NCBI GenBank assembly: GCA_013286365.1
Contig: JABDFY010000006.1
Location: forward strand, 1,881-65,880
Source: Alphaproteobacteria bacterium
GTDB lineage: Bacteria > Pseudomonadota > Alphaproteobacteria > UBA9219
Length of the DNA stretch: 64,000 nt
Reading direction: 5' to 3'
Within the stretch, counting starts at the first letter, position 1. Each line of letters opens with the position of its first letter. The notes beneath the pieces are model-generated. The model was not told the DNA's origin, did no database searches, and was given only the letters and a program-made list of their open reading frames with translations. Both the position numbers and the translations under genes were made by a program. Positions 21,149 through 42,510 of this stretch are shown here, one piece after another.

Positions 21149-21157
21149 GCAAAGTCC

Positions 21158-27143: not shown

Positions 27144-27629
27144 ATGAAAAAATTCTCTTTAATCCTAAGCAACGTTTTGGTGGCAATGTTTCTTGCTTTG
27201 GCGGCCTCGACAGCGCAAGCAACTGAAGCTGAGACACGCGACGCTCTATACGAACTGTCGGCAAAACACTGCATTTATCACTCCAAAGCCACCGTTCAAC
27301 CCGCAGTTCAAGCATTGACGGCTGAAACTTTGCAAATTCTTCCGAAACGCCAAATCGTCTTCTGCCCTAATCCTAAACTTGGCAGTAACCTGGCTGTGGT
27401 TTGGTATGGCGAGCACAAGTCGATTGTTTGGAACCCTGAAGTTCAAGGTGCCGTCGAGCTTTTGGCCAAAAAGCTGGATGAAATGTCGCGCAATGATCAG
27501 TTTCCTCCGGGCGTTGAACCTTGGTATGCCGATGGTACGCAACCCAAACCAGGCACGAATGTTCCTGGTTTTGATTATGCGATAAAGTTCGATTGGCAGG
27601 ATCAACGTGGTTGGTATGATAACGAGTGA
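27144..27629 (+). CDS. Secreted hypothetical protein
   Basis: Signal peptide MKKFSLILSNVLVAMFLALAASTAQA from ATG 27144. Confidence 0.4.
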   Translation: MKKFSLILSNVLVAMFLALAASTAQATEAETRDALYELSAKHCIYHSKATVQPAVQALTAETLQILPKRQIVFCPNPKLGSNLAVVWYGEHKSIVWNPEVQGAVELLAKKLDEMSRNDQFPPGVEPWYADGTQPKPGTNVPGFDYAIKFDWQDQRGWYDNE

Positions 27630-27668
27630 CGGTATTGATTTCTTCCTCATCTTAGCTTGGAGTAAAAC

Positions 27669-28235
27669 ATGAAAAAGTTAGTTCTTTCGACAGTCGGACT
27701 CGTTCTTACCCTATCAAATATTGCGTTTGCTCAAAATATGCAGGAACTGGGTCGAATACCAGTACCACCCGTAACTACGGTTGCCCCACAAGCCCTTACT
27801 ACTGTGTCTACTGGCTTAAGCCTTGCGGATCGCGAAACTCTTAGTGGTGTTGAAACAGCAGCTAATCAATCAGCCGCCGCAGTGCAAGCCGCATGCGGTA
27901 ATTCATCGTTTGTGTTTAATTACAACTGGGCAGCCTATGACCAAGTCGATTACAAGCTAGCTATGGACCCGAACGTCACAAAAATCCAATTCATGAGCCG
28001 CGCGTCCATGTTTTCAAGCGATGTGTCTAAAGCCTTGGTCCAGATTTGTGCCAACCCCGCAGGCAGAACGGCGGTAGCGCAATTGACTGGGGTTAATCTG
28101 ACGCCTCGTCCCGACAACACCAAAGGCTTCGGTATGCATGTCGTCAAAAATGGCACGATATTGGATGCCGATTACTACCCTTTCGGCCGTAGCGGGTCGC
28201 AGGATTTAGCGGCGGATATTAAGAAGGCATTGTAA
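27669..28235 (+). CDS. Secreted hypothetical protein
   Basis: Signal peptide MKKLVLSTVGLVLTLSNIAFA. No other motif. Confidence 0.4.
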   Translation: MKKLVLSTVGLVLTLSNIAFAQNMQELGRIPVPPVTTVAPQALTTVSTGLSLADRETLSGVETAANQSAAAVQAACGNSSFVFNYNWAAYDQVDYKLAMDPNVTKIQFMSRASMFSSDVSKALVQICANPAGRTAVAQLTGVNLTPRPDNTKGFGMHVVKNGTILDADYYPFGRSGSQDLAADIKKAL

Positions 28236-28334
28236 GCCAGCAGTCTCAGGAAAGCTGGTGAAAAACCCTTTTCTTATAAATTCTCAGGCTACTACTCAGA
28301 CTCAACACCATGTAACTGAGAAAATTATTTCCTC

Positions 28335-28589
28335 ATGAAAAACTTAATAATGTTGATCTGTTGCCTTTTAGGCGCCGCCCCCGTTTACGCGGACACGGAT
28401 AATTTTTGTTTGAATGGCTGTCTACAAAAAGGCACGGCCTATGAATTGTGCGAAAAGGATTGTTCCTACGACGCAAACGGGCAGTCGTCTCCGTCATCAA
28501 CTACAATTCAGATTGATGACAAATGCATGGTCGAGTGCGCAAAGCAAGGGTACTTGGACGATCTATGCAAGAAGAAATGTTCGTATTGA
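28335..28589 (+). CDS. Small secreted cysteine-rich protein with duplicated twin-CX3C module
   Basis: Signal peptide MKNLIMLICCLLGAAPVYA, then CLNGC-x9-CEKDC-SY and CMVEC-x9-CKKKC-SY. Confidence 0.5.
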   Translation: MKNLIMLICCLLGAAPVYADTDNFCLNGCLQKGTAYELCEKDCSYDANGQSSPSSTTIQIDDKCMVECAKQGYLDDLCKKKCSY

Positions 28590-28767
28590 TGATGCATGAG
28601 GACTACTCGGTTAACGTTATTGGCCAATCCCCGATATTGAGTCCGTGTACCAATAAGCTTGGCGACCGTGCCACAAAAAAATAGACAATCAAGATGGGGT
28701 AACTTTGGGGCAGCTAAAAAACGTTGAGCAAATTCATTCTTTTCTCTTCAATGTAATAGGCTTTCTT

Positions 28768-28789
28768 TTCAATCCATGTCGCACCACCA
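28768..28789 (+). repeat. Short degenerate copy of the tRNA-Val T-arm/acceptor end plus homologous downstream flank
   Basis: ttcaatccatgtcgcaccacca against ttcaatccctgtcgcacccacca. The following flank, actttttcaaagagttagcaattttagggagg, aligns with the flank of the intact tRNA, cgcttttcaatgggttagctttttgaaggagg. Confidence 0.6.
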
Positions 28790-29055
28790 ACTTTTTCAAA
28801 GAGTTAGCAATTTTAGGGAGGAGCACAGTCTTTGACATTAATAGAATGGTCGCTAGCTCTCATCCACTGCGAGAAGCTCAATAGGGTTTTGGCTAATGAA
28901 GCCAACCAAAGCGCGAAGGTTCAGATCAATCGGAATGCTATAAAAAACAAAGCATGGTGCTTAAAAGAAATTTTGAAGTTTGCATAAAACACGCGGGCCA
29001 CGTATATCAATATCAGTTTTTTATGCGCTAAAATTAACAAATAAATGGCGTTGCC

Positions 29056-30291
29056 ATGACAGATTTGAATGAACTCCTCTTTCAAAGAAACTCTATTCCT
29101 GCAATAAAATTTTCTCGTCGCTTAAGCAGAGCATTGGGACGGGTTGTCGCCGTCATTGATGAGGGCGACCTTCCATATACACCTACCGACTCCTTGTATG
29201 TTGATTTGAATGATGAACAACTTAGGGAAAGAGCTCTTTTTGTTAAAAAACGAATTGAAGAAACATTCCCAAGTGTCATCCAGCAAATTGAAGCTGCGGA
29301 CGCAGAACAGTGGAAAGAATTTTGGGAAAAACGTAAAGGCGTAAAAGTTGGAACAATGCATGGTGCTATCCATGTGTTTCCAACATCTCAAGATACCCAC
29401 CCTCAAATGTTTCGTTTAAAAGGCAGTCATTTTATAAAATTCGGGTTCATACTTGCACCCAGCGGGCAGCATACCCCCATAGTTCAATGGAGAGACCTGA
29501 CGGGTTTAGGTTCAAATCTTGAATATTTTCCCGAAGGTAATTTTATAGCCGATTATAAGTTTATTCATGAAGTCGCTCATCTGCTTCAAGCGTACAATTT
29601 CGGTATTGAAGGCGACGTATATTGGAGGTGGCATAAAGAACGCAACGCGGACATTTTATCCCATGAACAAATGGAAATTAGAGCTGAAGAGATCAAAATC
29701 TCAGAGCCTCAAGACGCTATACGTATTCGAGATACTGTAATGGCGGCTAAACAAGCCAGAGTTTTGAGAAGTTTCTTAAAACCTTATGAAGGGCATATGG
29801 TTTTTTCTGATCTTTATGCAAACGCCAGAATTACATTGCCAGAAGGCATTAATGTTCATCGCCATAACGTGATCGCTCTGGCTAGCTTCATCTCAAATAC
29901 TGAACTTAGGCTACGAACCATTGCTCGGCTTCAGGGAGCCAAGATATTGCAAACATCAAGTGATTTACAGTCGGATATTACAAGGTACAATCGAGCGCAA
30001 GACCTTCAGACTGTTGACCCAGATGTTCGTCCTTTTTTTGCTGTTATTGGGACAAAGATCAGCAAGAACTCAAATGACGATCCTCGAGATTTTCTTCCAG
30101 CTTTAAGAGATGTTGTTACCTCAAGAGAGGCAGACTTACCATTTACACAGCAGCATGGTGAATTAATATTGAAAGCTGTGCGTCGATTTGGCCCTTCACT
30201 GCTTTCTCTTCCGTCTCCCTTCCCTCATCCGCCTCTATATGATAGCCCTAGTTCGGATACGCCCTATCGCCTGTTTAAGCCAGATTGCTAG
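29056..30291 (+). CDS. Hypothetical protein with HExxH motif (possible zinc metallopeptidase/effector)
   Basis: 411 aa with FIHEVAHLLQAYNFGIEGD. No signal peptide, and nothing else I recognise. Confidence 0.3.
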   Translation: MTDLNELLFQRNSIPAIKFSRRLSRALGRVVAVIDEGDLPYTPTDSLYVDLNDEQLRERALFVKKRIEETFPSVIQQIEAADAEQWKEFWEKRKGVKVGTMHGAIHVFPTSQDTHPQMFRLKGSHFIKFGFILAPSGQHTPIVQWRDLTGLGSNLEYFPEGNFIADYKFIHEVAHLLQAYNFGIEGDVYWRWHKERNADILSHEQMEIRAEEIKISEPQDAIRIRDTVMAAKQARVLRSFLKPYEGHMVFSDLYANARITLPEGINVHRHNVIALASFISNTELRLRTIARLQGAKILQTSSDLQSDITRYNRAQDLQTVDPDVRPFFAVIGTKISKNSNDDPRDFLPALRDVVTSREADLPFTQQHGELILKAVRRFGPSLLSLPSPFPHPPLYDSPSSDTPYRLFKPDC

Positions 30292-30461
30292 ATTTAATTT
30301 AGGACTAACGGGTTTCGAAATTTATCAGGATCAATTTATGCGAACACTGCTTCTTATTGTTGTTGGATGCTACTTTCCCTGAAAGTATTAAGAAAAAATA
30401 TAGCATTTAATAATATGTTAAAGTGAGCCAATTTACATGCGTCTGATAATTTAGAGGTAGT

Positions 30462-31115
30462 ATGTCGAGGAGTTATTTACGTCATGATCCTTTGGAGCGT
30501 GCTGCACAAGAGATGGCAGTATTGCTGAATGAAGTGACGGGAGAATGTTTTCCTGACCATGAGTGGGCAGTTTGTTACGATGGCTATAGCTACTCTATTC
30601 AGATGGTGGGGACGGGTGACAAAAGTGATAAATCTTTATCTGAAACCGTTGTGGTAAATATTGGTGGGCAGAACCACCATGTTAAGAAGATATATGCAGA
30701 CAGTGAGAATTCCTCAACTGAAATTAGCCCAGAAGCCTATCACTCGCTAAGACATGCATTTGCATCGCTAGGTATATTAAGCACGGAAGAGAGACGCAGT
30801 CCTTTGACGAAACACCTAGCTAGATTTTTAATTACTGCATTTAAAAGCCACTACCCGAACTTCAGGTTAGGTGTTCGTATAAGTAGTAACATTTCGGACA
30901 TGACAAGAGACATACAGTGGCTCAATGAAAACAAAGGCGGACTGAGACGTTCGGTTTTCAGCCATACTCGTGGGTTTGCTTATCACCGACGAAAAATCAC
31001 TTCACCTATTGCTAGGCGAATTGGTAATAGTAGATATCGCTGGTGGAAAACAAGAAACTTAGTTCGCTCAGTTGTAATTAAGAGGTGGAAATCAGCTTTC
31101 TCTGATCCTAAATAG
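30462..31115 (+). CDS. Hypothetical protein with basic C-terminus
   Basis: 217-aa ORF. The C-terminal tail is R/K-rich: HRRKITSPIARRIGNSRYRWWKTRNLVRSVVIKRWK. Confidence 0.3.
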   Translation: MSRSYLRHDPLERAAQEMAVLLNEVTGECFPDHEWAVCYDGYSYSIQMVGTGDKSDKSLSETVVVNIGGQNHHVKKIYADSENSSTEISPEAYHSLRHAFASLGILSTEERRSPLTKHLARFLITAFKSHYPNFRLGVRISSNISDMTRDIQWLNENKGGLRRSVFSHTRGFAYHRRKITSPIARRIGNSRYRWWKTRNLVRSVVIKRWKSAFSDPK

Positions 31116-31343
31116 CAATCAGGCTATTCCAAGCAAGGGCCATAAGGCTTTCATGTGGAGTGCCGACAAATGCCAGCCCGCACGCAGTAATGCTATTAAT
31201 ACAATGCAAACCATCATCAAGTATCGCAAATTAGCGAGAATTTTGAAAATCTTACGCATGGTCCGCACAATATTAATATCAAAGATCTGGTTTGTTGCTA
31301 TCATTGGACAAAATCAGCTAATTTTCTATCAAGCACCCTGCAA

Positions 31344-32036
31344 TCATTGCTCAAATAAGTTTTTTTCATTAATCGTCACATCCGTCACAAAGATGGTTTG
31401 ACAATCAGGTTTGTTGTCACCCCACTTGGTAAAATAGTTGCCCGAAGGCGTTAGGGCTGTCTTCCATATCCACCCCGGTTGCTCCGACCATTCAACATCT
31501 ACCAGGTAACCTCGCAAGCGGACAATATCGCCGGTATTGGCGCGCCATAATTTCAAGAAAATTTCCATATTTGCTGGGATCAGATGATTGTTCGATTTAA
31601 TGCTGGTATCGCCCATGGCGGCGATATATTCGGGCGGAGTATCCGCGTTCCAATGATATTTGAAGGTATAATACCGGCCGATAGCATGAACGCCGTGATG
31701 ATCGAAACTCATATAGGGGCGGATAATGTTAAGATCGGACATGCTTTTCCAGCCCAGCGCGAAATCGTACGGGATAATATCGCCGAAAAACCCATTCGTA
31801 AAATATTGCCGCTTATGCAACACACGACCAGAAATGTCATAGGTCATGCGAGGTTCAATGAGAAAGGTTCGCGGAAATAGCGCGTATGAGGTGAATGGAA
31901 ATGACGCAAGCTTGGTTTCGGTTTCTATCGGCTCCTGAGAAACAATACCCGGCTTGGCAAATCGAAAAGGATCAAATACGCCCCATAACCAATAGCCTAT
32001 CAAACAAACGACAACTATTTTTACGAAGTAGCGCAT
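31344..32036 (-). CDS. Hypothetical membrane-anchored protein
   Basis: N-terminal TM MRYFVKIVVVCLIGYWLWGVF from ATG 32036. The track ORF starts at GTG 32081. Confidence 0.35.
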   Translation of the reverse strand: MRYFVKIVVVCLIGYWLWGVFDPFRFAKPGIVSQEPIETETKLASFPFTSYALFPRTFLIEPRMTYDISGRVLHKRQYFTNGFFGDIIPYDFALGWKSMSDLNIIRPYMSFDHHGVHAIGRYYTFKYHWNADTPPEYIAAMGDTSIKSNNHLIPANMEIFLKLWRANTGDIVRLRGYLVDVEWSEQPGWIWKTALTPSGNYFTKWGDNKPDCQTIFVTDVTINEKNLFEQ

Positions 32037-32131
32037 AATTGATTTGCCCATTTGCATATCCGGCGGCACTTTAAGGCACAAAAAGACGCGATAAATCTCT
32101 GAATTGCCAGCGCATACTGATTTCCTATGTT

Positions 32132-32174
32132 TTCACACGGTAGATGTCATAGGTTCAATGCCTTTCCATCACCA
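32132..32174 (+). repeat. Degenerate copy of the tRNA-Val 3-prime end plus about 100 bp of flank homologous to the 14595 flank
   Basis: ttcacacggtagatgtcataggttcaatgcctttccatcacca, followed by attcaatgatttagccgccactgaaatgatcgag. Compare tttcaatgatttagtgatcattgaaatgattgag at 14595. Confidence 0.65.
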
Positions 32175-32364
32175 ATTCAATGATTTAGCCGCCACTGAAA
32201 TGATCGAGAATCCTACCTAATGCCGGTAAAGTTTGATAGTAAACTATACATGCCTTAGGCAGAGGTCGCTGAATTCATTAGATCAAACAAAACTCAAACT
32301 GATACTCTTTTAAAGAAAGCAACGCACTTCTCGCAAGAGTTATACTTTCTAGTCTGCCATTTCA

Positions 32365-33564
32365 ATGGGCTCGATCACAACCATGCGCATAGAACGCAAT
32401 CTGAAACTCATCGGGTTCTTTACAGTTTGCGGTAGCATGCTGTTTCTTATCCCGGTCATATTACCTTATTACAGCGAGGTGATAGGCCTTGGGTACAGAG
32501 AGTTTTTATATGGAGAGACAGCATATGCCGCAGCTATTGTGCTTTTTGATGTTCCGACAGGCTGGATATCTGATGTGTGGAAGCGCAAACACACTTTAGC
32601 ACTTGGCTACATTCTCAATATGATCGGGTGGTGCATACTTTTAATTGCCCATAGTCTCTGGCAAGCCATTTTAGCCCAAACCTTTCTTGGGCTTTGTTAC
32701 AGTCTGTTGTCAGGATCTAACACTGCTCTCCTTTATGATTCACTACTTTCCGTAGATCGCAAAAATGAATATCGCAAAAAGGAAGGCAAACGAATGGCGT
32801 TGTCGCTTTATGCCATAGCTGGGGCCAGCGTTGTGGGTGGTTTTCTGTATTCAATTAATCGGTATCTTCCTATTTATACGACACTAATTGCAAACTTTAT
32901 TGCCCTCATCGCGGTTCTTATGATAGATGAGCCCGAGCGTCATAAAAGGATAGGACAGAAGCATCCTGTGGCCGATATAATCGAGACAATAAAGTATGCT
33001 CTGCATGGTCATGCTGAAGTGGGCTTTATTATCATTTTTACTGCCGTGCTGTTTTGTTCTACCAAACTCATCATGATATCGCAGCAGCCTTATTACATGG
33101 CGCTCAATTTTCCAAAGGCTGCTTTTGGCATACTGATTGCCGTCGGATTCTTTTTAGGCGGCGCATCAAGCCATTGGGCGCACCTTCTTGACGGCAAGAT
33201 TAATACCTTTCGGGCCTTGATGTTTGCTTGGGCCTTGGCGTTTTTTGTCTGCGTCGGTGCTGGACTACATATTGGACTATCTGGGGTGGCTTTATTGATG
33301 GTAGGCGGAAGCTGCATTTATGGAGCTGCAGCTCCACGTGTGAATGAAGCCATCAATCGGCTTGTCGGGTCTGAAAGACGAGCTACGATCCTTTCGACAC
33401 TCAGTTTTATGACGTCTCTGCTCGCAATACCCATGAGTGCCCTTATAGGGTGGATATCGGGTATTGGTGGCGTTCAATTATCTCTTTTTGGAATAGCTTT
33501 ATGGCTTTGTTTGTCTGGCGCATGCCTTGTTGCATGGAAAATGGGGCGGACCCAGGCCACTTAA
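32365..33564 (+). CDS. MFS-type transporter
   Basis: 399 aa with about 12 hydrophobic segments and a central loop, DRKNEYRKKEGKR, in an MFS-like arrangement. Confidence 0.6.
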   Translation: MGSITTMRIERNLKLIGFFTVCGSMLFLIPVILPYYSEVIGLGYREFLYGETAYAAAIVLFDVPTGWISDVWKRKHTLALGYILNMIGWCILLIAHSLWQAILAQTFLGLCYSLLSGSNTALLYDSLLSVDRKNEYRKKEGKRMALSLYAIAGASVVGGFLYSINRYLPIYTTLIANFIALIAVLMIDEPERHKRIGQKHPVADIIETIKYALHGHAEVGFIIIFTAVLFCSTKLIMISQQPYYMALNFPKAAFGILIAVGFFLGGASSHWAHLLDGKINTFRALMFAWALAFFVCVGAGLHIGLSGVALLMVGGSCIYGAAAPRVNEAINRLVGSERRATILSTLSFMTSLLAIPMSALIGWISGIGGVQLSLFGIALWLCLSGACLVAWKMGRTQAT

Positions 33565-33618
33565 GGTATTCGGCTTCTTGCTATATCAGTCATGTGGATG
33601 AAATAGATCGGGTTCACT

Positions 33619-34893
33619 TCAGGGGATAAAATTGTTGTCTTTGATTAGAACCATAACCGCATGAGATACGCAAATACCATCATTGCCTAACTTCGGACTA
33701 TTCGTGATTGCATTGCCTGTTATCGTAACGTCTCTAATCTGTGGGCCACCTGCGTCTAGAGCATTGCCATCGACTTCAATTGGGCATTGCTTTGTACCAG
33801 AAACCTGATTGCCGCTAATTTTACCATCGGACGCGTTTTGAACAAGAATTCCTTCACCCCATCTCGGGTTTTGATTAGAAAGAACGTTTTCAACTACATT
33901 GTCGCTAATATCGAAACCTACCGATGGTGTTGGATTGCCGTTCGGCCACCCGGAAATCTCGATGGCAGTGATTGCCGTGTTGTGAGCGATATTTTTGGTG
34001 ATGATGATGTTTGTTCCTGCAAAATGAATGGCGTGCCCCATTTGGTTGATAATACCATTATCTTCAATTGTATTTTCCGTAATCACGATGTCCTTGTTGT
34101 TAGGGCTATATCCGTTGATATCGAGGCCATTATGGCTAACGTAATTCTTCGAAATATTAACATTCTCTACCCCTGCTGAAGCTTGGGCACCTGGATCACT
34201 CGCTCCTCCATCGCCGTTGCCTGCGATAATTGTCATGGGGGACAAAGCGCAGTCTTCAATGTGGTTGTCATGGAAATAAAGATCATGTGCCTGTTCTGTT
34301 ATGTAATCGACGGCGATGCCGTGGCGGCCGGTATGCACTATCCGATTATTGGCTATTTCCCAGTTGGCATCTCCGCTGGAAAGCTCTACGGCACTCAACG
34401 GAATATCATGAAAATATATATTGTTCAGAAGCACGTCTGTCACATGACCGCTCGAAACGATGCTGCTTATCTTGGTAAATTGCGTAAGAACATTTGAACG
34501 ACCGTCGATTTCAAGTCCATCAATTTGAATATTTTTGGAATATTTAGGTATCGATAAAATCGGTGTGCCATCAATAGCGTTTCCGCCGAGCACTAGCTTT
34601 GCGCCGGTCGCAAATATGTTGACGCCATTTTTCGGCATAGCGAGGGAAGTGACAGTGTAGGTGCCCCCGGGCAATATAAGCCTTTTACCTCCGGCCTCAT
34701 TCAAAGCCGCCTGCAAGGCGTTAGTGCTATCGGCAGCGCCGGTTGGGTCAAGTCCAGGAAAATTTTTGGCAATCGCGATAATTGTGAAGTTGTTAAAGCC
34801 AGATGGCTGGCTATATGCATAGTCTGTACTCAGAAAAAGAAAAAATAGCACAGTCAGCGCAGATACACAGATGCCGACACCATATTTCCGCAT
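33619..34893 (-). CDS. Secreted right-handed parallel beta-helix (pectin-lyase-fold) protein
   Basis: Signal/TM MRKYGVGICVSALTVLFFLFLS from ATG 34893. The N-terminal DPTGAADSTNALQAALNEAGGKRLILPGGTYTV is typical of the Pectate_lyase_3 type. Periodic segments such as NITI.GN...N run through the rest of the protein. Confidence 0.6.
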   Translation of the reverse strand: MRKYGVGICVSALTVLFFLFLSTDYAYSQPSGFNNFTIIAIAKNFPGLDPTGAADSTNALQAALNEAGGKRLILPGGTYTVTSLAMPKNGVNIFATGAKLVLGGNAIDGTPILSIPKYSKNIQIDGLEIDGRSNVLTQFTKISSIVSSGHVTDVLLNNIYFHDIPLSAVELSSGDANWEIANNRIVHTGRHGIAVDYITEQAHDLYFHDNHIEDCALSPMTIIAGNGDGGASDPGAQASAGVENVNISKNYVSHNGLDINGYSPNNKDIVITENTIEDNGIINQMGHAIHFAGTNIIITKNIAHNTAITAIEISGWPNGNPTPSVGFDISDNVVENVLSNQNPRWGEGILVQNASDGKISGNQVSGTKQCPIEVDGNALDAGGPQIRDVTITGNAITNSPKLGNDGICVSHAVMVLIKDNNFIP

Positions 34894-35150
34894 TAAACGA
34901 GTTATATCTTTTGTTCCAAATTTCACAATAAGCTTTCCTGAAAATATCAGTTGCTTTACTTCTTCGTACTCACCTACCAGACATACAATGGAAGTCAAAG
35001 AAAAAACATGGTAAATTTATTTTCAACTAAAAATGAAAAAATAGGCCTATGAGTTCTCAAAATGTACCTGGCTTTGCCGGAAGTCATTGATTAACCGTAC
35101 TTTACCACGTGGCTTAACAATAAAGTTTAAGTGTGTTTCCTTATATACGC

Positions 35151-37964
35151 TTACCTGATCGTTACGTTTGTATGAGACTGGTAACGACTATTGTTGATTG
35201 TGTAATAGCGACCCTTGTCAGTAACAATCTCCCATATATCCGGGCGTTCCTGAGAAATACGATTGACCCAGTCATCGACTAGTTTATGACAAACCTGACG
35301 TTGTCCGTGGAATTCAATAAGCGGACCCACCGGATCAAAATATATTCCCAGTTTTGCCAAAAGATCGATGAGGAATGGCTCCATCTCCGCGCACCACTGT
35401 TTCACGTTATGTTGTTTGGCGAGCAAAAAGAGCATGCTTATGAGACCAAGAGACATCGCCGGAATGATACGCGCCCGATCAAAGGCTAATTCCTCTTCTG
35501 TATAGCCAGACCCTCTCAATGTATCGGCCACACGGCGACGTAATTCCCGAGAAATACAAAATCTGGAAATTTCTGCCATATTTTTCAAAGGCACTAATTG
35601 TGGTATCTGAAGATTATTTTCAGTGCAGATTTTATGGACAGGAAACACTCCGGTTGTCGCATTTTCTGGATGCAGAATGAGCCTGACCGTGCCGATGAAA
35701 AGACCTGTTTCTCGATGACGTAATAGAGCATGTACGGAATGCGTATCATACTCGTCTTTCTCAAGTTGGGCTGAGTTGAATTTATTGCTATTTTTTTGCC
35801 AATCATATTCGAGACAATAGACCTTGTACCTCAGCTTATAGCATTCGTTGCGAAGAGCATCCGTATCGGCAATAACAGAATCGAAAATGCTATGATAATA
35901 ATCGTAAAGAGAAGGTTTGGTTTTAGCAGGAGCTTCTTTTGCATAAAGCGCCGTTAAAGGTAGGCGCACAGAACGGCTGCTAGAGCGCTGTTTTCTGGGA
36001 TAGCCGATCCGCCCAATAAAGGCGATTTGGGATGGTTTTTTGCCGATCTGGTTCATAAGCCTCTGGCCAAGGCGCACAGATTTTAGAAGCATATTGCTAT
36101 CGTTTGTGAAGACATCTTTTCGTTGTCCGAACAGACTAAACATATGTGTTGCCGTGTTTGGCTGCATCACAAGGCCCATCGACGTCGCCGTGAGCCAGAA
36201 ACGTTGCATGGTTTGACCCATTTGCAAGTATTTTTGGGATGTAACCACGTCTTGTTCTCTATAATAAATGATAAAATGGCTGGAGCAGAACAAACCGGGC
36301 AACAACCCCATTTCTAATTGGGCAATAAGGGTTCCACCACCAAATCGGTTCATGAAATCGATACGTCGCCAGTCCTTCATCAACCAGTGCATAAGTTTAC
36401 ATGTCATCCAGTCGAGGCCTGTGGCCCAGATTGGAACTTTTGCAAGGCTGAATTTCTGTGTCCAATCCAAGATCGCCATGTGGGTTTTAAAAGCCTCAGG
36501 AATACGTAGACGGATATCCGTTGCCATCGCGTTGTTGATGGCTTGCTGCCAGCGCTCTAAAAAGGTTTCATGCCAACTTATAGAAAACTCGTCCCCAAGC
36601 GTAAGCATAAGAGCTCGTTTTTGCTCATCCGATAAAGGTGTCGTGCGATATAGATCGCGATTGACTGATCGGGTTGAGATAAAATTTGCCAGCTTATCGG
36701 CCTTGAGTGTAGGATTTTTAGGCAAGTTTACAACGAGCCGATAAACACCGTTCTCCTCGCTATCCAGAGACCAAGTGAAGTCACGATGATGACACGTTGC
36801 CGCAATCCGGATGGATTCGAGAAGACCGCCTCCGGCCAACAAGGTTGGTACTCCATTATCGAAATCGTAGAAATCTTCTATAGATCTAGCTTTTGCCGTT
36901 GCCAGATAAATAATGGCATGGCTGTCATCGATAATCTCAAAACGCCAAGGCTGCGTATTATCTCCACTTGGGGCCCAGCGCGCCTGATCAAAAATGGCTT
37001 CGATAGCGCGACTATGTACAGGAAGTGGTGGATGATCTGCGTTGCTTAGACGCTCAAACTGACGGTGAGTAATTGCAATTTTGAAGCGCTGGAGAAGATT
37101 TGCATTCCCACCTACCAACCTTGCTCGTTTCCATTTGCACTTATAGGCATCAAAATGATGATACCAGGGCGCGGCATAAATCGGACCACGTTTGAGGAGT
37201 AGTTTCAAGATTTGTGCAGCTGCAACACCAGCGCATAATTCGCAGGAAAGACCTGTCGAAGGCACGCGTTGATTTTTAATATCAAAACGTGTTTTATCAA
37301 CCAAATAGGAACGATGTAGCCCGGCCGGGGTTAGCCCCAAAAGAAAATGAACCATCTGCTTATCTTTTGGAAAATCGCGCATGCAGAAATAATCTTCGAA
37401 ACTCATTCCGTCTTTTGTGAAAACAAGATAGGCAGCCCCCATACCAGCAGGCGCTGCTGTGACGGCTGGAATCCCAAGTTCATGACAAAGGGAAAAAATC
37501 TTGCGTCGTGTATCGAGAACAAAAAAGTCGAGCCCGTCGAGATAGACATCGACCCCTTCAAGAAATGAGTTGATGTTATTATCCGTAACGCCGTCCTTAA
37601 ACTTCCTAATATCGAGTTCAGGGTTAATAGTGCGTGCCATCTCGGCCATCGTATCGGCTTTTGATTTGCCGATAGATGATAGCGATGCGCCAGCCTGCCG
37701 ATTGAAGTTTGCCAGCTCAAAATTGTCAAAATCGGCAATATTAAAGGCGCCAATGCCAAGCCTGGTCAGCGTCAGAAGATGTGAACCGCCAACGCCTCCC
37801 ATTCCAGCAATGGCTATACGCTTATAACGGAGTTCTTGTTGTTCGAAAGCGGTGACCCATCCGAGATTGCGGCTAAAGGCTTCGTCATAAGAAAATAATG
37901 GAGCGTCAGGCGTTTCGCGCAATTTTTCAGATTCCATTAGATGCGACCAATTGGATGAGGCCAA
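35151..37964 (-). CDS. Tri-domain fusion: E1/ThiF-like adenylyltransferase + nitroreductase-like (tandem) + N-acyl amino acid synthase (LuxI-related, TIGR03694-like)
   Basis: The 937-aa ORF is uninterrupted. ThiF motifs, aa ~45-265 (nt ~37170-37832): IAGMGGVGG, DFDNFELANFNRQ, INPELDI, LDGLDFF. Nitroreductase motifs, aa ~315-665 (nt ~35970-37022): ARWAPSGDNTQPWRFEII, FISTRSVNRDLY. NAS motifs, aa ~690-905 (nt ~35250-35897): CYKLRYKVYCLEYDW, EKDEYD, GTVRLIL, AEISRFCIS. Confidence 0.7.
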   Translation of the reverse strand: MASSNWSHLMESEKLRETPDAPLFSYDEAFSRNLGWVTAFEQQELRYKRIAIAGMGGVGGSHLLTLTRLGIGAFNIADFDNFELANFNRQAGASLSSIGKSKADTMAEMARTINPELDIRKFKDGVTDNNINSFLEGVDVYLDGLDFFVLDTRRKIFSLCHELGIPAVTAAPAGMGAAYLVFTKDGMSFEDYFCMRDFPKDKQMVHFLLGLTPAGLHRSYLVDKTRFDIKNQRVPSTGLSCELCAGVAAAQILKLLLKRGPIYAAPWYHHFDAYKCKWKRARLVGGNANLLQRFKIAITHRQFERLSNADHPPLPVHSRAIEAIFDQARWAPSGDNTQPWRFEIIDDSHAIIYLATAKARSIEDFYDFDNGVPTLLAGGGLLESIRIAATCHHRDFTWSLDSEENGVYRLVVNLPKNPTLKADKLANFISTRSVNRDLYRTTPLSDEQKRALMLTLGDEFSISWHETFLERWQQAINNAMATDIRLRIPEAFKTHMAILDWTQKFSLAKVPIWATGLDWMTCKLMHWLMKDWRRIDFMNRFGGGTLIAQLEMGLLPGLFCSSHFIIYYREQDVVTSQKYLQMGQTMQRFWLTATSMGLVMQPNTATHMFSLFGQRKDVFTNDSNMLLKSVRLGQRLMNQIGKKPSQIAFIGRIGYPRKQRSSSRSVRLPLTALYAKEAPAKTKPSLYDYYHSIFDSVIADTDALRNECYKLRYKVYCLEYDWQKNSNKFNSAQLEKDEYDTHSVHALLRHRETGLFIGTVRLILHPENATTGVFPVHKICTENNLQIPQLVPLKNMAEISRFCISRELRRRVADTLRGSGYTEEELAFDRARIIPAMSLGLISMLFLLAKQHNVKQWCAEMEPFLIDLLAKLGIYFDPVGPLIEFHGQRQVCHKLVDDWVNRISQERPDIWEIVTDKGRYYTINNSRYQSHTNVTIR

Positions 37965-38061
37965 TTTGAGAATTTTTGGCGTAACTCATTGTCTTGGCTT
38001 AGAAATTAATACGTAACCAAACTGGATATCTATGATTAAATTGCCTATATAATTACCTATA

Positions 38062-38078
38062 TTGCATATTTTATGCAA
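38062..38078. promoter_or_regulatory. Perfect 17-bp palindrome (TTGCATA-TTT-TATGCAA) in the divergent intergenic region; candidate operator
   Basis: Read directly. It lies 23 bp upstream of the XRE regulator ATG at 38102 and about 100 bp upstream of the tri-domain gene start at 37964. A direct repeat, cctatat-aatta-cctatat, sits next to it at 38044-38062. Confidence 0.4.
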
Positions 38079-38101
38079 ACCTAGCCCCATGGAACGCTAC
38101 G

Positions 38102-38821
38102 ATGATTGCTATTGAACAAATACGCGCCGCACGCGCCATGGTGAACTGGTCACAGCGTCAATTGGCTGCAGCGGCAGGTCTCTCATTGCGCAACATCCAT
38201 AACATCGAAGCGGGATTAGTCGTCCCAAGACTTGAGACCATTAAGGCAATAAAAACTGCCCTAGAAAAAGCTAACATCGAATTTGGCGATGACTGCACAG
38301 TAACGTTGCGTCGCGAAGTATTCGACATAGAAAAACGCGAAGGGGAAGGTGCGCTCGAATCTTTAGTGCGAGATTTTATGGAAGCCTATCGTCAAGGCAC
38401 TAAGGAACTATTGCTATGTAATACAATAGAAAAAAAATGGGTTGAGATGGTAACCAGCGCCATGAACGAAGAATATAACAAAAGCTTGATGCGCTTTGGC
38501 GTGAAAGAACGCTGTTTAATCGCTCACGGTGACAAGACGATGTTTGGCTATCCTACATTCTATCGCTGGATGCCTAAAGAATATTTTAGAGAAGTTTCCT
38601 ATGCGGTATATGGAACTACATTAGCTCTAATCATATGGTCTCCGACTGTGCGAATTGCCATAATTCGTAACACGCATATTGCCGATAGTTACCGCCGCCA
38701 TTTCGAGTTCATCTGGGAACGTTCAGAAATTCCGCCTGTAGCCGAGCTAGCACAACGACACCCTCGTCGCGATGAACCTGAGATTTGGCAGATCGAAAAT
38801 GGTGCCCGCGTCTCAGATTGA
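38102..38821 (+). CDS. XRE-family helix-turn-helix regulator with uncharacterised ~170-aa C-terminal domain
   Basis: N-terminus IRAARAMVNWSQRQLAAAAGLSLRNIHNIEAG is a typical HTH_XRE. The remainder is not recognisable. Confidence 0.65.
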   Translation: MIAIEQIRAARAMVNWSQRQLAAAAGLSLRNIHNIEAGLVVPRLETIKAIKTALEKANIEFGDDCTVTLRREVFDIEKREGEGALESLVRDFMEAYRQGTKELLLCNTIEKKWVEMVTSAMNEEYNKSLMRFGVKERCLIAHGDKTMFGYPTFYRWMPKEYFREVSYAVYGTTLALIIWSPTVRIAIIRNTHIADSYRRHFEFIWERSEIPPVAELAQRHPRRDEPEIWQIENGARVSD

Positions 38822-38895
38822 AGACGTAGACTTCTTCTTGAAGTGCGGCCTATTGTATTTGGAAAAAGAGCGCAGTTGCTGTTTTTGAGATTATA

Positions 38896-39993
38896 TTAAA
38901 AACCAAATCCTTGGTTTGTTGCTGCACCAGTAGATACATTCATGCATTGCTGTTCGATAGTCGGCCGGCATGGATGATCAAGGAACCCCATTTGGCTTGG
39001 GTTTCCCGCTGCCTTTAAGGCCGTGCGAGGGGCTAGCGCACAAAGCAGCCATGCATGCCGATGAAATTTATTGTAACCTTCCATAACCCATTGATGCGCC
39101 ATTCGCGGATTTCTTGCGCACGTAATGCCAAGATTGACCCCCTCCAGCATAGCCTTAGCATGTTCTGGTTCAGCAACCAGATGATCGAGCACATATTGGC
39201 TTTGAGGAAGCTGTTTATTAAATACATTATACTCAACTGTGCCTCTGGTTTCCAAAGCCAGCATATAACCGAGCAGCTTGTATATCTTTCTATCGGTAAC
39301 TCTCCCACGAATACACAAAGTGTTGGTCATGCTCCTGCCAATACTTCGTAGCCATAGAGGTGTCTTAACAATATGTGGATCGGTTGAAGTGATCCCCGCT
39401 TTCTCCATAGCAGCGGCTTGCCACTCCTGACCCAACACAATATGCCCTGCCCCTACAAAATCATCCGCCATAGCCAGAAATATTTTGCCAGCGATGTCTG
39501 TAGAGCGATCGCCGGATTGCCCTGGCTGGTTGCGATCTTGAAACAATCCCTGCCTAAACGAAAGTGAGATCCTACTTAATGCACCAGCGCTCGCCCCTGG
39601 CGCCGTGCGATTGAATTTCAAAACATATGAAATCAAATAAGCAGTCGCTCGATCATCTCCTTTGACCAAGCCACACATATTCCAGAACAAGTCACGGTAA
39701 TCACTCTCTGAATGCGCGCGATTTAAATCTGCTTCCGTTATTCGCCAGTCAGTACGAATATTATTTAGTTTCTGCAAATAATCTTCGAAAAAATCACCAA
39801 AAAGCATAGCCCCCACTGATCTGGGCCTAAATAACAATATCAAAGGATTACTTAATACGATCCCTAATGCTGTCCGAGGATAGTATTCAGAATAACCAAA
39901 ACCAAAATCAGGGATAATTCTTTCCAGACACCTATCGGTTGCTACGGCTAAATTATACCTGGTTGATTCGCGGACGTAAAACGCAGAGAACAT
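38896..39993 (-). CDS. Hypothetical protein, possibly heme-oxygenase-like di-iron (iron-containing redox enzyme) fold
   Basis: Candidate ligand-type motifs spaced as in HDO/Haem_oxygenase_2 proteins: MADDFVGAGH, LALETRG and LDHLVAEPEHA. This is weak, motif-level evidence only. Confidence 0.3.
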   Translation of the reverse strand: MFSAFYVRESTRYNLAVATDRCLERIIPDFGFGYSEYYPRTALGIVLSNPLILLFRPRSVGAMLFGDFFEDYLQKLNNIRTDWRITEADLNRAHSESDYRDLFWNMCGLVKGDDRATAYLISYVLKFNRTAPGASAGALSRISLSFRQGLFQDRNQPGQSGDRSTDIAGKIFLAMADDFVGAGHIVLGQEWQAAAMEKAGITSTDPHIVKTPLWLRSIGRSMTNTLCIRGRVTDRKIYKLLGYMLALETRGTVEYNVFNKQLPQSQYVLDHLVAEPEHAKAMLEGVNLGITCARNPRMAHQWVMEGYNKFHRHAWLLCALAPRTALKAAGNPSQMGFLDHPCRPTIEQQCMNVSTGAATNQGFGF

Positions 39994-40406
39994 GCATCGA
40001 TCCTATTTATCAAATTGAATGCTCAACCTTCAATATATGGAAGCTCTAATTAACTAACATATGCCGAATATTATTGCCACCATATGTGGTTGAGGGCAAG
40101 GCCGCATGTAAGTTAATAGCATGACATTAACCTTGTTGGCTTTGATCCTTTACATGGCGAATGCAGACAACTAAAAAATATCTACTGAGACGCTTCCTTA
40201 ATCTATCAGAGTTATTGCACTTGCTTTACTTGATGCTTTAAGACTTCCGCAAAGGGTCGCTGTAGCTCTCAACTTAGCAAATTATTTAGCGCATATTTTA
40301 ATCAACATTATAGTTTTAACCTGAATTTAGGGAAAAATAGCTAAAATTGCCATCACCCAAAAATATACAGAAATAAATCCGTCTTAAACGCGGAGATCAT
40401 GTCATC

Positions 40407-41228
40407 ATGACCATAGGCAATGTAACTAATTCATTTTCTCTGCAGTCAAGCTTGACGGCACTAGCCAACAATGAACAGCAATTGAAGACAACAGAGCAAC
40501 AGTTGTCTACTGGTAAATCCGTTAATTCGCCCTCGGACAACGCGACGGCATTTTACGCTTCGCAGAATTTTCTTCAGCAGGCAAATGACCTCGCGAGCCT
40601 AAAGGACAATCTCGCAACCTCTTTGGCGACTGTAAATTCAACCACGAGTTCGATTTCAGATGTCACCCAAGTCGTTCAACAGCTTCAAGGAATAACTGCC
40701 CAAGCAGCCGGCACCACGGATACGACCACCCGGGCCAATTTAGCAACACAATATAACGCGCTGCTTCCCCAGCTCGATCAGCTGGTCAATGACGCAACAT
40801 TTAACGGCACTAATTTGATCAATAACACATCAACAAGTCTCACAGTGAACTTCAATGCCAACAATACATCGGGAGTGACAATTCCCAGCGTTAACGTCAC
40901 ATCAAGCGGTCTCAACATCACCAGTGTATCGAACGGTTTTGCGACGACAGCCGACATTAATGCAGCCAACTCACAATTACAGAGTGCATTGTCGACATTG
41001 AATGCCAACGCCGCTAGCTTCGGTGATAACGCTACATTGATCCAAACCAATCAGGATTTTACATCCAATTTGATCAATAACCTTCAAACGGCGTCAGATA
41101 ACCTGACTTTGGCGGACACCAATCAGGAAGCCGCAAGCCTTCTGGCACTCCAGGCACAGAACCAATTAAGTGTTGCGTCGCTGGGTATATCAGGCCAACT
41201 GTCACAAGCCGTTCTAAAGTTATTTTAA
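40407..41228 (+). CDS. Flagellin (short alphaproteobacterial type, 273 aa)
   Basis: N-terminal QQLSTGKSVNSPSDNATAFYAS, central FNGTNLIN, and C-terminal ADTNQEAASLLALQAQNQLSVASLGISGQLSQAVLKLF. This is the conserved flagellin D0/D1 pattern, and the length matches Caulobacter-type flagellins. GGAG lies upstream. Confidence 0.8.
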   Translation: MTIGNVTNSFSLQSSLTALANNEQQLKTTEQQLSTGKSVNSPSDNATAFYASQNFLQQANDLASLKDNLATSLATVNSTTSSISDVTQVVQQLQGITAQAAGTTDTTTRANLATQYNALLPQLDQLVNDATFNGTNLINNTSTSLTVNFNANNTSGVTIPSVNVTSSGLNITSVSNGFATTADINAANSQLQSALSTLNANAASFGDNATLIQTNQDFTSNLINNLQTASDNLTLADTNQEAASLLALQAQNQLSVASLGISGQLSQAVLKLF

Positions 41229-41336
41229 ATAGGCCATAAGCTCAGACGGAAAGATTCTTCTCATAGGATATTGAAAGACATTTCTTGCAACATCCTCTCC
41301 TCTTGAATTGACTCTCGGTGTATTTCGCACACGTTC

Positions 41337-41798
41337 CTATCGCGTAGCTCTCAATAATTGCCGCCAACCACCGCGTCGATTGACACCCGTCTGCGTAAGA
41401 GCGCCCAGGGCGAGTGTCGCGACAGCGGCAGCACCTGCTAATTCTGTATTTGGAAACCTACGTTGTGTGACAGCCGTTATAGCGGCACTCGTTAGTGTCA
41501 TCAAAACGTTACCTGCCGTTCTGATGCGATTGGCATGTCGTCGAACATTACAATCAATTCCATAATGCTGTAAAATATTGCCGTCCCAATTTTGAGCGTT
41601 TCGCGCTAGTTTATTCATATATAAACCTGTTGTGATCAAGCTAGCCTCGACAAACTCTAAAGGAAGTCCCTTATAAGCAACATAAGCTGCAATACAAGTA
41701 CCCAACGCCGCAGCCAAGGAAGCAATCGGTAACTTATCCTCCAACGGCATGAGCAATCTCGCACCATAGGCCTTAAATAATATCGATAACCTATTCAT
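41337..41798 (-). CDS. Hypothetical membrane protein
   Basis: 153-aa ORF with hydrophobic segments. No motif recognised. Confidence 0.3.
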   Translation of the reverse strand: MNRLSILFKAYGARLLMPLEDKLPIASLAAALGTCIAAYVAYKGLPLEFVEASLITTGLYMNKLARNAQNWDGNILQHYGIDCNVRRHANRIRTAGNVLMTLTSAAITAVTQRRFPNTELAGAAAVATLALGALTQTGVNRRGGWRQLLRATR

Positions 41799-41874
41799 AA
41801 AATACCCTTTCGTTTTATATAAACACTACATCCAGTAGACGATATTATTCTTATCGCCTTTCAGATTAATCCGC

Positions 41875-42510
41875 TTAATAACCTTTTGTCTTTGCATAAT
41901 CAATCATCCAGAGCTTACGAGGTCCACGAAAATGAATAAGTGCGGCCTCATCCAAATTATCTTGCTGTTTGTCAGGTGTTCGACAATAGGTATCGTAATC
42001 AAGTTCTTTTATAGTTAAACTTGTATCGATCGTCGCGCGTAGAAATGCCGTTTGTCCGCCTTCCCAGCCATCCTTGACACGAAACGACTGATAAACGGCC
42101 AAGGCCTGATTAAATATCTCTCCGCCGCCTGGTTTTATGAAATCAACGTCGCCGCAAAATGCATTGTCATTTCTATCTTTTGCCGGATACCGGCAAGCGG
42201 CAACATGAAAGTCGTCATTAAATACGTCTCTCACATTCTTACAAACCAATACATCCGTCGCAATTTGCAGGATGTTTTCCGGCCGCTCACAGAGCTTAAT
42301 CATGGCCCCAAACCCCCACATAATAAAATCCCCTCTATAAGGGTGGCGCAGCACTTCGTCGACCCCTTCGATACCAGGAAAAGTGTCATTTGACAGTTGC
42401 ACTATCTTAGCGCCTGGAATGTTTTTGCGTACCGAGCCTATGGTATATCGCGCACGTTCGACCGAGGAGACTTCCCCAGTATCTTCTTGTAGGCAGAATG
42501 TCACAATCAT
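41875..42510 (-). CDS. Hypothetical protein, possibly GT-A-fold nucleotide-sugar transferase
   Basis: Start moved to ATG 42510 (MIVTFCLQED), preceded by AGGA. The track ORF starts at TTG 42588. The segment QIATDVLVCKNVRDVF loosely resembles the GT8 region around the DxD motif. Weak evidence. Confidence 0.25.
   Translation of the reverse strand: MIVTFCLQEDTGEVSSVERARYTIGSVRKNIPGAKIVQLSNDTFPGIEGVDEVLRHPYRGDFIMWGFGAMIKLCERPENILQIATDVLVCKNVRDVFNDDFHVAACRYPAKDRNDNAFCGDVDFIKPGGGEIFNQALAVYQSFRVKDGWEGGQTAFLRATIDTSLTIKELDYDTYCRTPDKQQDNLDEAALIHFRGPRKLWMIDYAKTKGY

Follow-up and report, generated by a model that had tools for sequence, protein, structure and literature searches.

We predict that the gene described here, located on the minus strand of a 64-kb window (the whole stretch of DNA that was analyzed), encodes a self-contained three-module N-acyl-oxazolone synthase, which arose as a natural fusion of an OxzB-type didomain with an OxzA-type N-acyltransferase. 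We put the probability of this reading at about 0.77. Because the three activities together make up a characterized pathway, their combination is expected rather than mysterious, and the fusion gene, though genuine, varies that pathway only modestly, in its architecture and with no new chemistry. The proposed OxzB/OxzA-type assignment is based on matches to family models, on the domain architecture and gene context, and on published descriptions of validated enzymes. The coordinates of the gene, its modules and its neighbors are given in Table 1.

Table 1. Features of the oxzB-oxzA fusion locus in the 64-kb window.
Feature	Coordinates	Strand	Basis or detail
oxzB-oxzA fusion gene	35151..37937	minus	928 aa from ATG 37937; stop codon 35151-35153
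ThiF-type adenylating/cyclase module, aa 23-310	37035..37898	minus	Pfam, PRK08223, AF2
Flavin-dependent oxidase module, nitroreductase superfamily, Acg-like double-NTR fold, aa 311-673	35946..37034	minus	Pfam, NCBIfam, AF2
Fusion linker YAKEAPAKTKP, aa 674-684	35913..35945	minus	Between end of OxzB homology and start of NAS homology
N-acyl amino acid synthase (NAS) module, OxzA/TyzA-like, TIGR03694 family, LuxI-related, aa 685-925	35190..35912	minus	TIGR03694, Pfam, AF2
Divergent intergenic (putative promoter) region, fusion gene/HTH regulator	37938..38101	.	Position between divergent genes
XRE-family HTH protein, 239 aa, divergent from fusion gene	38102..38821	plus	Pfam HTH_3
Right-handed beta-helix protein, 435-459 aa, downstream same-strand gene	33619..34998	minus	Pfam Beta_helix

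Three systems built from these enzyme types are known to produce N-acyl oxazolones. OxzA and OxzB (a ThiF-nitroreductase protein) of Pseudoalteromonas rubra and four other proteobacteria make these compounds (de Rond et al., bioRxiv 10.1101/2020.06.11.147165), TyzA, TyzB and TyzC constitute the tyrazolone pathway of M. tuberculosis (PMC10404671), and TrzA (Rv1356c) and TrzS (Rv1355c, "MoeY") form the route to N-acyl tryptazolones in M. tuberculosis, M. smegmatis and Rhodococcus (PMC12856293). Production of N-acyl oxazolones by the OxzA/OxzB, TyzA/B/C and TrzA/TrzS systems has been demonstrated both in vitro and in vivo (bioRxiv 10.1101/2020.06.11.147165; PMC10404671; PMC12856293), with aromatic amino acids as the substrates in all characterized cases. 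The pathway appeared in a preprint in 2020, its discovery is dated to 2021 in a review (PMC12596934), and it was extended in 2023 and 2025. The fusion protein has in common with OxzA/OxzB an N-acyltransferase, a ThiF-like ATP-dependent cyclase and a nitroreductase-family oxidase, the latter two in the same order, and both are of the proteobacterial-type family, in which most genomes carry the acyltransferase gene next to the didomain gene. However, oxzA stands as a gene of its own that usually lies upstream of oxzB, whereas in the window the acyltransferase forms a covalent C-terminal extension of the OxzB-like part. TrzA/TrzS likewise consist of a NAS and a ThiF-FDO fusion enzyme; TrzS carries out ATP-dependent cyclization followed by O2-dependent desaturation, and its oxidase domain is closest to PDB entry 2YMV (PMC12856293), as is the oxidase module of the fusion protein. 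This system differs in belonging to an actinobacterial subcluster and in having trzA as a separate upstream gene. TyzA/B/C share the chemistries and the enzyme superfamilies, but are three separate proteins with another gene arrangement.

The longest ORF extends over 35151..37964 on the minus strand and encodes 937 aa from the first TTG (37964), with no stop or frameshift in the ORF listing. The true start is most likely ATG 37937 (Met10 of the 937-aa ORF), giving a protein of 928 aa, since the homolog alignments open at residue ~23-24 and two public gene calls use this ATG. The first-pass annotation had described a single uninterrupted ORF carrying ThiF, nitroreductase and NAS signature sets. 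This description is borne out by the ORF listing together with profile and structural support for all three domains: the Pfam ThiF, Nitroreductase and Acetyltransf_5 matches each exceed the gathering score, and NCBIfam profiles match as well. The motifs that it had quoted are correct, as are the domain junctions that it had placed near 37060 and 35930, which we refine to ~37034/37035 and 35913-35945. The 928-aa protein, with Nitroreductase, ThiF and Acetyltransf_5 domains, has been called in the JGI and Logan assemblies. The idea that the gene is missing or split in public records, as its absence from the 5.8-billion clustered-protein results might imply, was rejected, given the existence of this call; the 90% cluster of the fusion protein has been given, in error, a 50-aa YjbR fragment with no relation to it as its representative, which is a database artifact.

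The N-terminal module matches Pfam ThiF over aa 32-283 (E = 6e-44) and NCBIfam PRK08223, the model of the ThiF-type module of this clade, over aa 23-310 with 423 bits against a cutoff of 266. Its ATP-binding and adenylation motifs (GxGxxG, DxD, NxxRQ, Lys and the catalytic Asp) are intact, occurring as GMGGVGG, DFD, NFNRQ, K102 and D143/D146. Residues G54/G56/G57, D78/D80, N88-R89-Q90, K102 and D143/D146 are invariant among 12 relatives, and they align with those of TcdA and ThiF, the nearest relatives with solved structures by sequence. The AF2 model of the module has a pLDDT above 90 and a TM score of 0.8 to ThiF, MoeB and AclA. The best of the solved-structure sequence relatives, the tRNA ct6A dehydratase TcdA, also closes an oxazolone ring via ATP-dependent cyclodehydration (review PMC12596934), but its substrate is tRNA and it lacks an oxidase or acyltransferase module.

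The central module contains the motifs RWAPSGDNTQPW and RSVNR, matches Pfam Nitroreductase from aa 316 (E = 1e-11) and the Rv1355c and Acg NCBIfam families over aa 314-671, and has 21 residues that are invariant across 90 sequences. It was poorly modeled in the full-length AlphaFold prediction because of the mixed alignment, and was rescued by separate modeling, which gave one Acg-like double-nitroreductase fold (AF2 pLDDT 92.9, pTM 0.92) with 2YMV as the top PDB match (E = 5.9e-11, TM 0.74). The "second half" of the nitroreductase region noticed in the first pass is therefore real and belongs to this single fold. Both the profiles and the model place a monomeric Acg-like flavin-dependent oxidase, fused C-terminally to the ThiF-type module, as in the OxzB/TrzS didomain. 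The fusion protein scores 142 bits with the Rv1355c family model (cutoff 476) and 377 bits with PRK14851, a ThiF-nitroreductase didomain model of 679 positions (cutoff 1170), with aa 27-632 aligned to profile positions 23-635. These scores under the cutoffs identify it as a divergent member; its nearest homologs, P0001 and P0002, likewise fall under the PRK14851 cutoff.

The C-terminal module matches TIGR03694 with 223 bits against a cutoff of 111.95 (aa 688-920 to profile positions 2-239 of 241) and Pfam Acetyltransf_5 over aa 711-813 (E = 5e-17), while the FeeM and Autoind_synth Pfam families match the fusion protein weakly. It is modeled by AF2 with a pLDDT above 90 and shares 53-68% identity with stand-alone NAS proteins. 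The single sequence of the module gave no match in the PDB, and a profile search was needed to reach the AHL synthases: the NAS family profile detects BjaI (1e-6), TofI, RpaI and LasI. The NAS invariants, in module numbering, are R33, E56, D58, D61, R82 and E119-S121-R122, and the conserved Arg, Glu/Asp and ExSRF motifs of the LuxI-family AHL synthases, TIGR03694 and FeeM-type NAS are present in the module too. An earlier assignment to the PEP-CTERM/exosortase-associated NAS holds with respect to TIGR03694 membership; the PEP-CTERM/exosortase label is only the name of that family. Neither exosortase genes nor PEP-CTERM tails were found among the ORFs of the 64-kb window, the part of the genome covered here.

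By analogy with the characterized homologs, the C-terminal NAS would take a fatty acyl group from acyl-CoA or acyl-ACP and attach it to the alpha-amino group of a free amino acid. The N-terminal ThiF module would adenylate the resulting N-acyl amino acid at its carboxylate, using ATP, and attack by the amide oxygen would close the oxazol-5(4H)-one ring. In a further step, the central FMN-dependent oxidase would use O2 to desaturate the C-alpha/C-beta bond, yielding a 4-alkylidene/arylidene oxazolone of the tyrazolone, phenazolone or tryptazolone type that may hydrolyze to an N-acyl-2,3-dehydroamino acid. The product is likely to be an N-acyl 4-alkylidene/arylidene-oxazol-5-one or the ring-opened N-acyl-dehydroamino acid. 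The chemistry suggested by the first-pass annotation, which combines acyl transfer to the nitrogen of an amino acid with ATP-dependent activation of a carboxylate and with flavin redox chemistry to reach a modified lipo-amino acid or a possible signal, is supported by analogy, the same steps being experimentally established in OxzA/OxzB, TyzA/B/C and TrzA/TrzS.

In the two closest relatives (53-61% identity) the modules are encoded by adjacent genes, ThiF-nitroreductase and then NAS. In one of them (L001), the ThiF-nitroreductase protein shares 60% identity over aa 24-673, and the gene for a distinct NAS, with 53% identity over aa 660-920, comes after a gap of 240 nt; the other (L087/L088) has the same arrangement with a gap of 388 nt. 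The host is Gram-negative and flagellated, and its nearest oxz relatives belong to the Proteobacteria. We therefore conclude that the window gene is a fusion of oxzB with oxzA, and these comparisons show, at the level of sequence, its descent from an adjacent oxzB/oxzA gene pair. The linkage to NAS that is typical of the OxzB/TrzS didomain takes the form of fusion in the window and of adjacency in L001 and L087; more broadly, a NAS gene is present in the flank of 50 of the 82 related loci, where both its strand and its distance vary. All 37 relatives found for the NAS module are stand-alone proteins of 212-372 aa. Seven loci (L007, L010, L029, L063, L071, L077 and L081) considered as same-frame fusions of NAS and ThiF-nitroreductase were rejected, as stops lie between the genes.

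No other ThiF-nitroreductase-NAS protein was found when 5.8 billion clustered proteins were searched with the full-length sequence, when 1.84 billion representatives were searched exhaustively with HMMER and every match above 850 aa was checked, when the NAS module served as the query, among the 80 best of the 571 relatives from GTDB species genomes, or in a metagenome scan. The survey for this three-domain order proposed earlier thus located it nowhere else in the protein sets and GTDB loci searched, and the accompanying statement that no characterized protein joins all three domains still holds across everything searched. What is without parallel in these searches, however, is only the order of the modules: the enzyme set is that of the known N-acyl-oxazolone pathway, and NAS-ThiF-nitroreductase proteins exist in databases. 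The latter, exemplified by P0255 (982 aa) and P0204 (870 aa), are uncharacterized tri-domain proteins matched by the curated model PRK14852 (NCBIfam NF011425, "hypothetical protein", 989 positions), and carry NAS (FeeM), ThiF and nitroreductase on one polypeptide. They differ from the fusion protein in having an N-terminal, FeeM-type acyltransferase and a ThiF-nitroreductase part that is only 35% identical. The fusion protein scores 289 bits with PRK14852 against a cutoff of 1337, and only its ThiF-nitroreductase portion matches (profile positions 311-738). The window fusion and the PRK14852-type fusion are independent events.

It is very improbable that the single ORF is an assembly chimera, an indel artifact or a recent non-functional read-through of genes that are really separate. 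Such an origin would agree with the occurrence of the ThiF-nitroreductase-NAS order in no other sequence searched and with the two genes of the nearest relatives. Against it, the DNA of the gene (2,787 nt) is identical across the window (NCBI-derived), L090 and L091, which are three public assemblies from different pipelines, including JGI and Logan, and this makes an artifact unlikely, although all sightings may trace to one sample, so that the support does not come from independent populations. The junction region, where 11 residues of the Ala/Pro/Lys type join native termini and are modeled with low pLDDT in the full-length prediction, contains no homopolymer run of 5 or more and lacks an ATG, and stops interrupt the two other frames; moreover, no internal ATG or SD-preceded start is present for the NAS part. 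A single indel cannot produce this anatomy, because the 240-388-nt spacer and the variable N-terminal NAS extension of the relatives are absent from the fusion gene and are replaced by the compact linker. The domain E-values and the 2.8-kb open frame, with both alternative frames stopped at the junction, are far beyond chance.

Two further alternatives concern function. It is conceivable, if unlikely, that the same enzyme serves physiologically to make a ring-opened N-acyl-2,3-dehydroamino acid lipid of the thalassotalic acid, kyonggic acid or stieleriacine type, with the oxazolone as a transient. Producers of dehydroamino acid lipids have NAS, ThiF and nitroreductase genes, and some yielded only N-acyl-dehydrotyrosines and no oxazolones (PMC12479983); in addition, oxazolones hydrolyze within hours at pH 8 (bioRxiv 10.1101/2020.06.11.147165). 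On the other hand, oxazolones have been isolated or detected upon expression of oxzAB (done in E. coli), tyzACB and trzAS and in several native hosts, and the sequence offers nothing to tell one outcome from the other. We give hardly any credence to the ThiF module being a sulfur-carrier/ubiquitin-like activator (MoeB/ThiF/MoeZ) or part of a RiPP/TOMM-like azoline system, with an E1-like protein and an McbC-like dehydrogenase. The source annotations of homologs read "molybdopterin/thiamine biosynthesis adenylyltransferase", and the ThiF fold and ATP motifs are common to ThiF, MoeB, MccB and PaaA, but the fusion protein scores far under every cutoff of the ThiF, MoeB and MoeZ equivalog models (NCBIfam), and no ThiS/MoaD, YcaO or precursor-peptide genes are found nearby. 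In addition, the ThiF module is covalently joined to an Acg-like oxidase and an N-acyltransferase, a domain combination for which activity on small N-acyl amino acids has been demonstrated.

If active, the predicted oxazolone synthase would represent the most compact known N-acyl-oxazolone pathway, in which one gene leads from an acyl thioester and an amino acid to an oxazolone lipid, and would be a handy single-gene tool for heterologous production. The fusion also provides a natural test of whether covalent joining imposes an order on cyclization and desaturation or channels intermediates, a question explicitly posed in the TrzS study (PMC12856293). It adds a second independent tri-domain event, of B-A order beside the catalogued A-B order, and the two events are classic Rosetta-stone evidence that the three activities act as one unit across Proteobacteria. 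The fusion does not address the main question of the field, namely what oxazolones are for.

Downstream of the fusion gene, the beta-helix gene is possibly co-transcribed with it, as no terminator-like site was found between the two; its position next to oxz genes is not conserved elsewhere. A 365-aa unannotated ORF at 38896-39993 was considered as kin of the positionally similar ORFs of L083/L085 and was rejected as unrelated. The divergently transcribed XRE-family HTH protein is a possible regulator of the locus, and shares 64% identity with a protein that is likewise encoded divergently beside a stand-alone NAS in L083/L089. A general regulator-synthase coupling was rejected, since apart from the window and L083/L089 the HTH gene has no NAS neighbor, as seen in its other homologs (L101-L104). 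That the fused synthase and the HTH protein form a LuxI/LuxR-like signaling cassette, with a labile N-acyl oxazolone or dehydro-acid as the autoinducer and the ~170-residue C-terminal domain of the HTH protein as its receptor, is a speculative and improbable proposal; if true, the fusion would channel the intermediates and release the final signal only. The intergenic region between the two divergent genes contains a perfect 7-3-7 palindrome, TTGCATA-N3-TATGCAA, at 38062-38078.

The minus-strand fusion gene is an open reading frame of 937 codons without a stop when counted from the first TTG (residues are numbered from this codon throughout), and is thus unbroken, as the first-pass annotation had reported. 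No obvious ribosome-binding site precedes the TTG at 37964, homologue alignments start at residue 23-24, and two public gene calls on the same DNA begin at the ATG at 37937 (Met10 of the ORF), giving a 928-aa product. The three domain sets claimed for this single ORF were each backed by profile searches against Pfam and NCBIfam, with additional weak Pfam matches to FeeM and Autoind_synth.

Features of the fusion gene, the window and related loci
Feature	Position	Strand	Remark
Fusion gene ORF	35151..37964	-	first TTG to stop
ThiF (Pfam)	aa 32-283		E 6e-44, above gathering score
Nitroreductase (Pfam)	from aa 316		E 1e-11, above gathering score
Acetyltransf_5 (Pfam)	aa 711-813		E 5e-17, above gathering score
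PRK08223 (NCBIfam)	aa 23-310		423 bits, cutoff 266
Rv1355c family and Acg family FMN oxidoreductases (NCBIfam)	aa 314-671
TIGR03694 'PEP-CTERM/exosortase system-associated acyltransferase' (NCBIfam)	aa 688-920		223 bits, cutoff 112
XRE-family HTH protein gene	38102-38821	+	divergent, upstream of fusion gene
Palindrome TTGCATA-AAA-TATGCAA	38062-38078		perfect 7-3-7, 24 nt upstream of HTH gene ATG
Unannotated 365-aa ORF	38896-39993	-	convergent with HTH gene
MFS transporter gene	32365-33564
Alpha-2-macroglobulin and penicillin-binding protein 1C genes	15164-23491	+
Tandem 395-aa and 381-aa ORFs	12108-14412	-	slight overlap
HTH homologue, locus L083	1421-2197	-
365-aa ORF homologue, locus L101	1430-3205
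365-aa ORF homologue, locus L102	1516-3186
RND and MFS genes, locus L001	9421-12023		directly after oxzB, oxzA
Stand-alone NAS region, loci L085/L086	4077-5272

All three modules are present and intact. The ThiF module retains all of the ATP-binding and adenylation motifs (GMGGVGG, DFD, NFNRQ, Lys102, Asp143/Asp146); these residues are identical throughout 12 relatives and line up with TcdA and ThiF, the nearest solved relatives by sequence. In a full-length AlphaFold model this module was predicted with pLDDT >90 and gave TM ~0.8 against ThiF, MoeB and AclA. The central module was poorly modelled in that first run, which used a mixed alignment; a separate model of it, built on an alignment with 89 relatives of two-domain type, had pLDDT 92.9 and pTM 0.92, and its top PDB match by a wide margin was 2YMV (the Acg homologue from M. 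smegmatis; E 5.9e-11, TM 0.74, 376 columns). The module is thus predicted to adopt a monomeric double-nitroreductase fold, which accounts for the nitroreductase "second half" starting FISTRSVNRDLY that had been noticed in the sequence. The C-terminal module was also modelled with pLDDT >90, and a profile built from it and 36 stand-alone relatives found the AHL synthases BjaI, TofI, RpaI and LasI in the PDB. Its description as LuxI-related was correct.

The ThiF, NR and NAS trio is the enzyme set of a characterised pathway. [quoted passage not shown] In M. tuberculosis this chemistry is divided among three individual proteins, TyzA, TyzB (a ThiF homologue) and TyzC (a nitroreductase-superfamily flavin-dependent oxidase) (Grigg et al., PMC10404671), and Rv1356c/Rv1355c (TrzA/TrzS) produce N-acyl tryptazolones (Kleetz et al., PMC12856293). 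TrzS is a ThiF-oxidase fusion, the nearest structure to its oxidase domain is 2YMV, and its ATP-dependent cyclisation obligatorily precedes O2-dependent desaturation, an order unlike that of TyzBC (PMC12856293). [quoted passage not shown] The acyl transfer, carboxylate activation and flavin redox step that had been proposed for the window protein are essentially the chemistry of OxzAB, TyzABC and TrzAS. By analogy with these homologues, the NAS module would N-acylate a free amino acid, the ThiF module would adenylate the carboxylate with ring closure to the oxazolone, and the FMN oxidase would desaturate the C-alpha/C-beta bond with O2; hydrolysis of the oxazolone might then yield an N-acyl-dehydroamino acid. 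Since TrzS and TyzBC differ in order, cyclisation and desaturation could occur in either order in the window protein.

Among the matches listed, those nearest to residues 1-673 are ThiF-NR didomain proteins 650-700 aa long, with 50-60% identity. For the closest, P0002 in locus L001 (60% identity over aa 24-673), the next gene has the same orientation, begins after 240 nt and encodes a separate 259-aa NAS, which shares 53% identity with the window protein over aa 660-920; the second closest locus, L087/L088, has the same arrangement (P0001, then P0271) with a gap of 388 nt. Elsewhere NAS usually precedes ThiF-NR or is encoded on the other strand: across 82 surveyed loci (L001-L082) it was upstream and adjacent in 28, upstream and distant in 5, on the opposite strand in 15, downstream and distant in 1, fused to ThiF ahead of a separate NR in 1, and absent from the flank in 31. 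Because its two closest relatives share the rarer order, the window gene is a fusion that arose from an oxzB-then-oxzA arrangement. OxzB homology extends to Leu673, which is no more than about 4 residues from the homologues' C-termini (...RSVRLPLEKLLET, ...RSIRLPLEELLIRR), and NAS homology begins at Ser685 (SLYDYYHSIF...), the start of the conserved core, which in stand-alone NAS proteins follows a variable N-terminal extension of 5-36 residues. The intervening YAKEAPAKTKP is an Ala/Pro/Lys linker of the typical flexible kind.

The fusion gene is real. One indel cannot turn the gene arrangement of the relatives into this anatomy, because their entire spacer and the N-terminal extension of NAS have both gone. 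Homopolymer runs of at least 5 are absent from the junction, stops shut both other reading frames, and no ATG lies within it, the sole alternative start being a GTG without a Shine-Dalgarno sequence. An identical 2,787-nt gene is found in the window (from an NCBI contig of 70 kb), in JGI metagenome assembly 3300020656 (L090) and in the Logan assembly of SRR8422468 (L091); as these three assemblies may share reads, their identity excludes an assembler artefact and does not establish population-level independence.

Within the proteins and genomes searched, the ThiF-NR-NAS order was found only in the window gene. No other example was present among the best 120 matches from 5.8 billion clustered proteins, in the best 150 matches when 1.84 billion representatives were searched exhaustively with HMMER (where a three-module match would rank above two-module ones, and every match >850 aa was inspected), or in the best 80 of 571 relatives in GTDB species genomes plus one metagenome locus. 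All 37 NAS relatives found were stand-alone, with none fused as in the window. The window protein itself was missing from the 5.8-billion-protein results owing to a database clustering artefact: its 90%-identity cluster is represented by P0318, an unrelated 50-aa YjbR-like fragment. Other permutations include NAS-ThiF with a separate NR after it (P0108/L002, P0121), NR-ThiF (P0187, P0195, P0208), ThiF-NR-NR (P0263), methyltransferase-ThiF-FeeM (P0250) and a tri-domain NAS(FeeM)-ThiF-NR (P0255, 982 aa; P0204, 870 aa). The oxazolone modules are generally plastic in fusion, and the many permutations indicate repeated independent fusions. P0255 fits NCBIfam PRK14852 over its full length, and three modules on one chain are therefore already catalogued, albeit uncharacterised. 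PRK14852-type proteins carry a FeeM-type NAS at the N-terminus, whereas the window protein carries a TIGR03694-type NAS at the C-terminus; only this order is new. The earlier statement that no characterised protein joins all three modules stands for everything searched. A tri-domain enzyme is not mentioned in the papers searched on this pathway. The window gene represents a previously unseen fusion order within a pathway that is already known and has been characterised experimentally.

The nearest stand-alone NAS relatives (L085/L086 and L084; 64-68% identity) come without ThiF-NR on their short contigs, so coupling to oxazolone formation does not hold for every member of this NAS clade; a MAPEG-family membrane protein gene follows one of them and overlaps it, and another adjoins a Fic gene. 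No exosortase or PEP-CTERM proteins were found in the window. Downstream of the fusion gene lie a beta-helix protein gene on the same strand and, beyond it, the MFS gene, neither with conserved adjacency to oxz genes in other loci. In L001, an RND membrane-fusion protein and an MFS transporter are encoded directly after the oxz genes, which suggests product export; the window and L001 MFS proteins showed no homology at the threshold used.

The divergent HTH protein has a ~170-aa uncharacterised C-terminal domain and just 14 homologues among 5.8 billion clustered proteins. A homologue with 64% identity holds the equivalent divergent place beside a stand-alone NAS in another metagenome (L083/L089); other homologues have no NAS neighbour. 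Beside such NAS-less HTH genes, L101 and L102 encode longer homologues (556-591 aa, 28-33% identity) of the 365-aa ORF in the same convergent place, so that HTH plus the 365-aa-type protein, instead of HTH plus the synthase, may be the pair that is conserved. The palindrome is a candidate operator, although it is short and L083 does not keep it as a palindrome.

Around the fusion gene, some 18 kb (~24000-42000) hold mostly family-less ORFs and have a slightly lower GC content (0.43-0.45 versus 0.46-0.49 in the flanks); this region may be variable or have been acquired. Blocks of ordinary chromosomal housekeeping genes flank it: flagellin, YceG, pepA, lptFG, surA and purMN on one side and, on the other, a 1994-aa bacterial alpha-2-macroglobulin (MG2, bMG3/5/6/10, bait region, A2M) with penicillin-binding protein 1C (TIGR02073, 750 bits) encoded immediately after it. 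The two tandem ORFs have zero Pfam or NCBIfam matches and alike C-terminal tails (...FLCGGVTEGGRIALTP / ...FLCGALTESGRLAISPM), and probably form a paralogous pair within an undescribed family.
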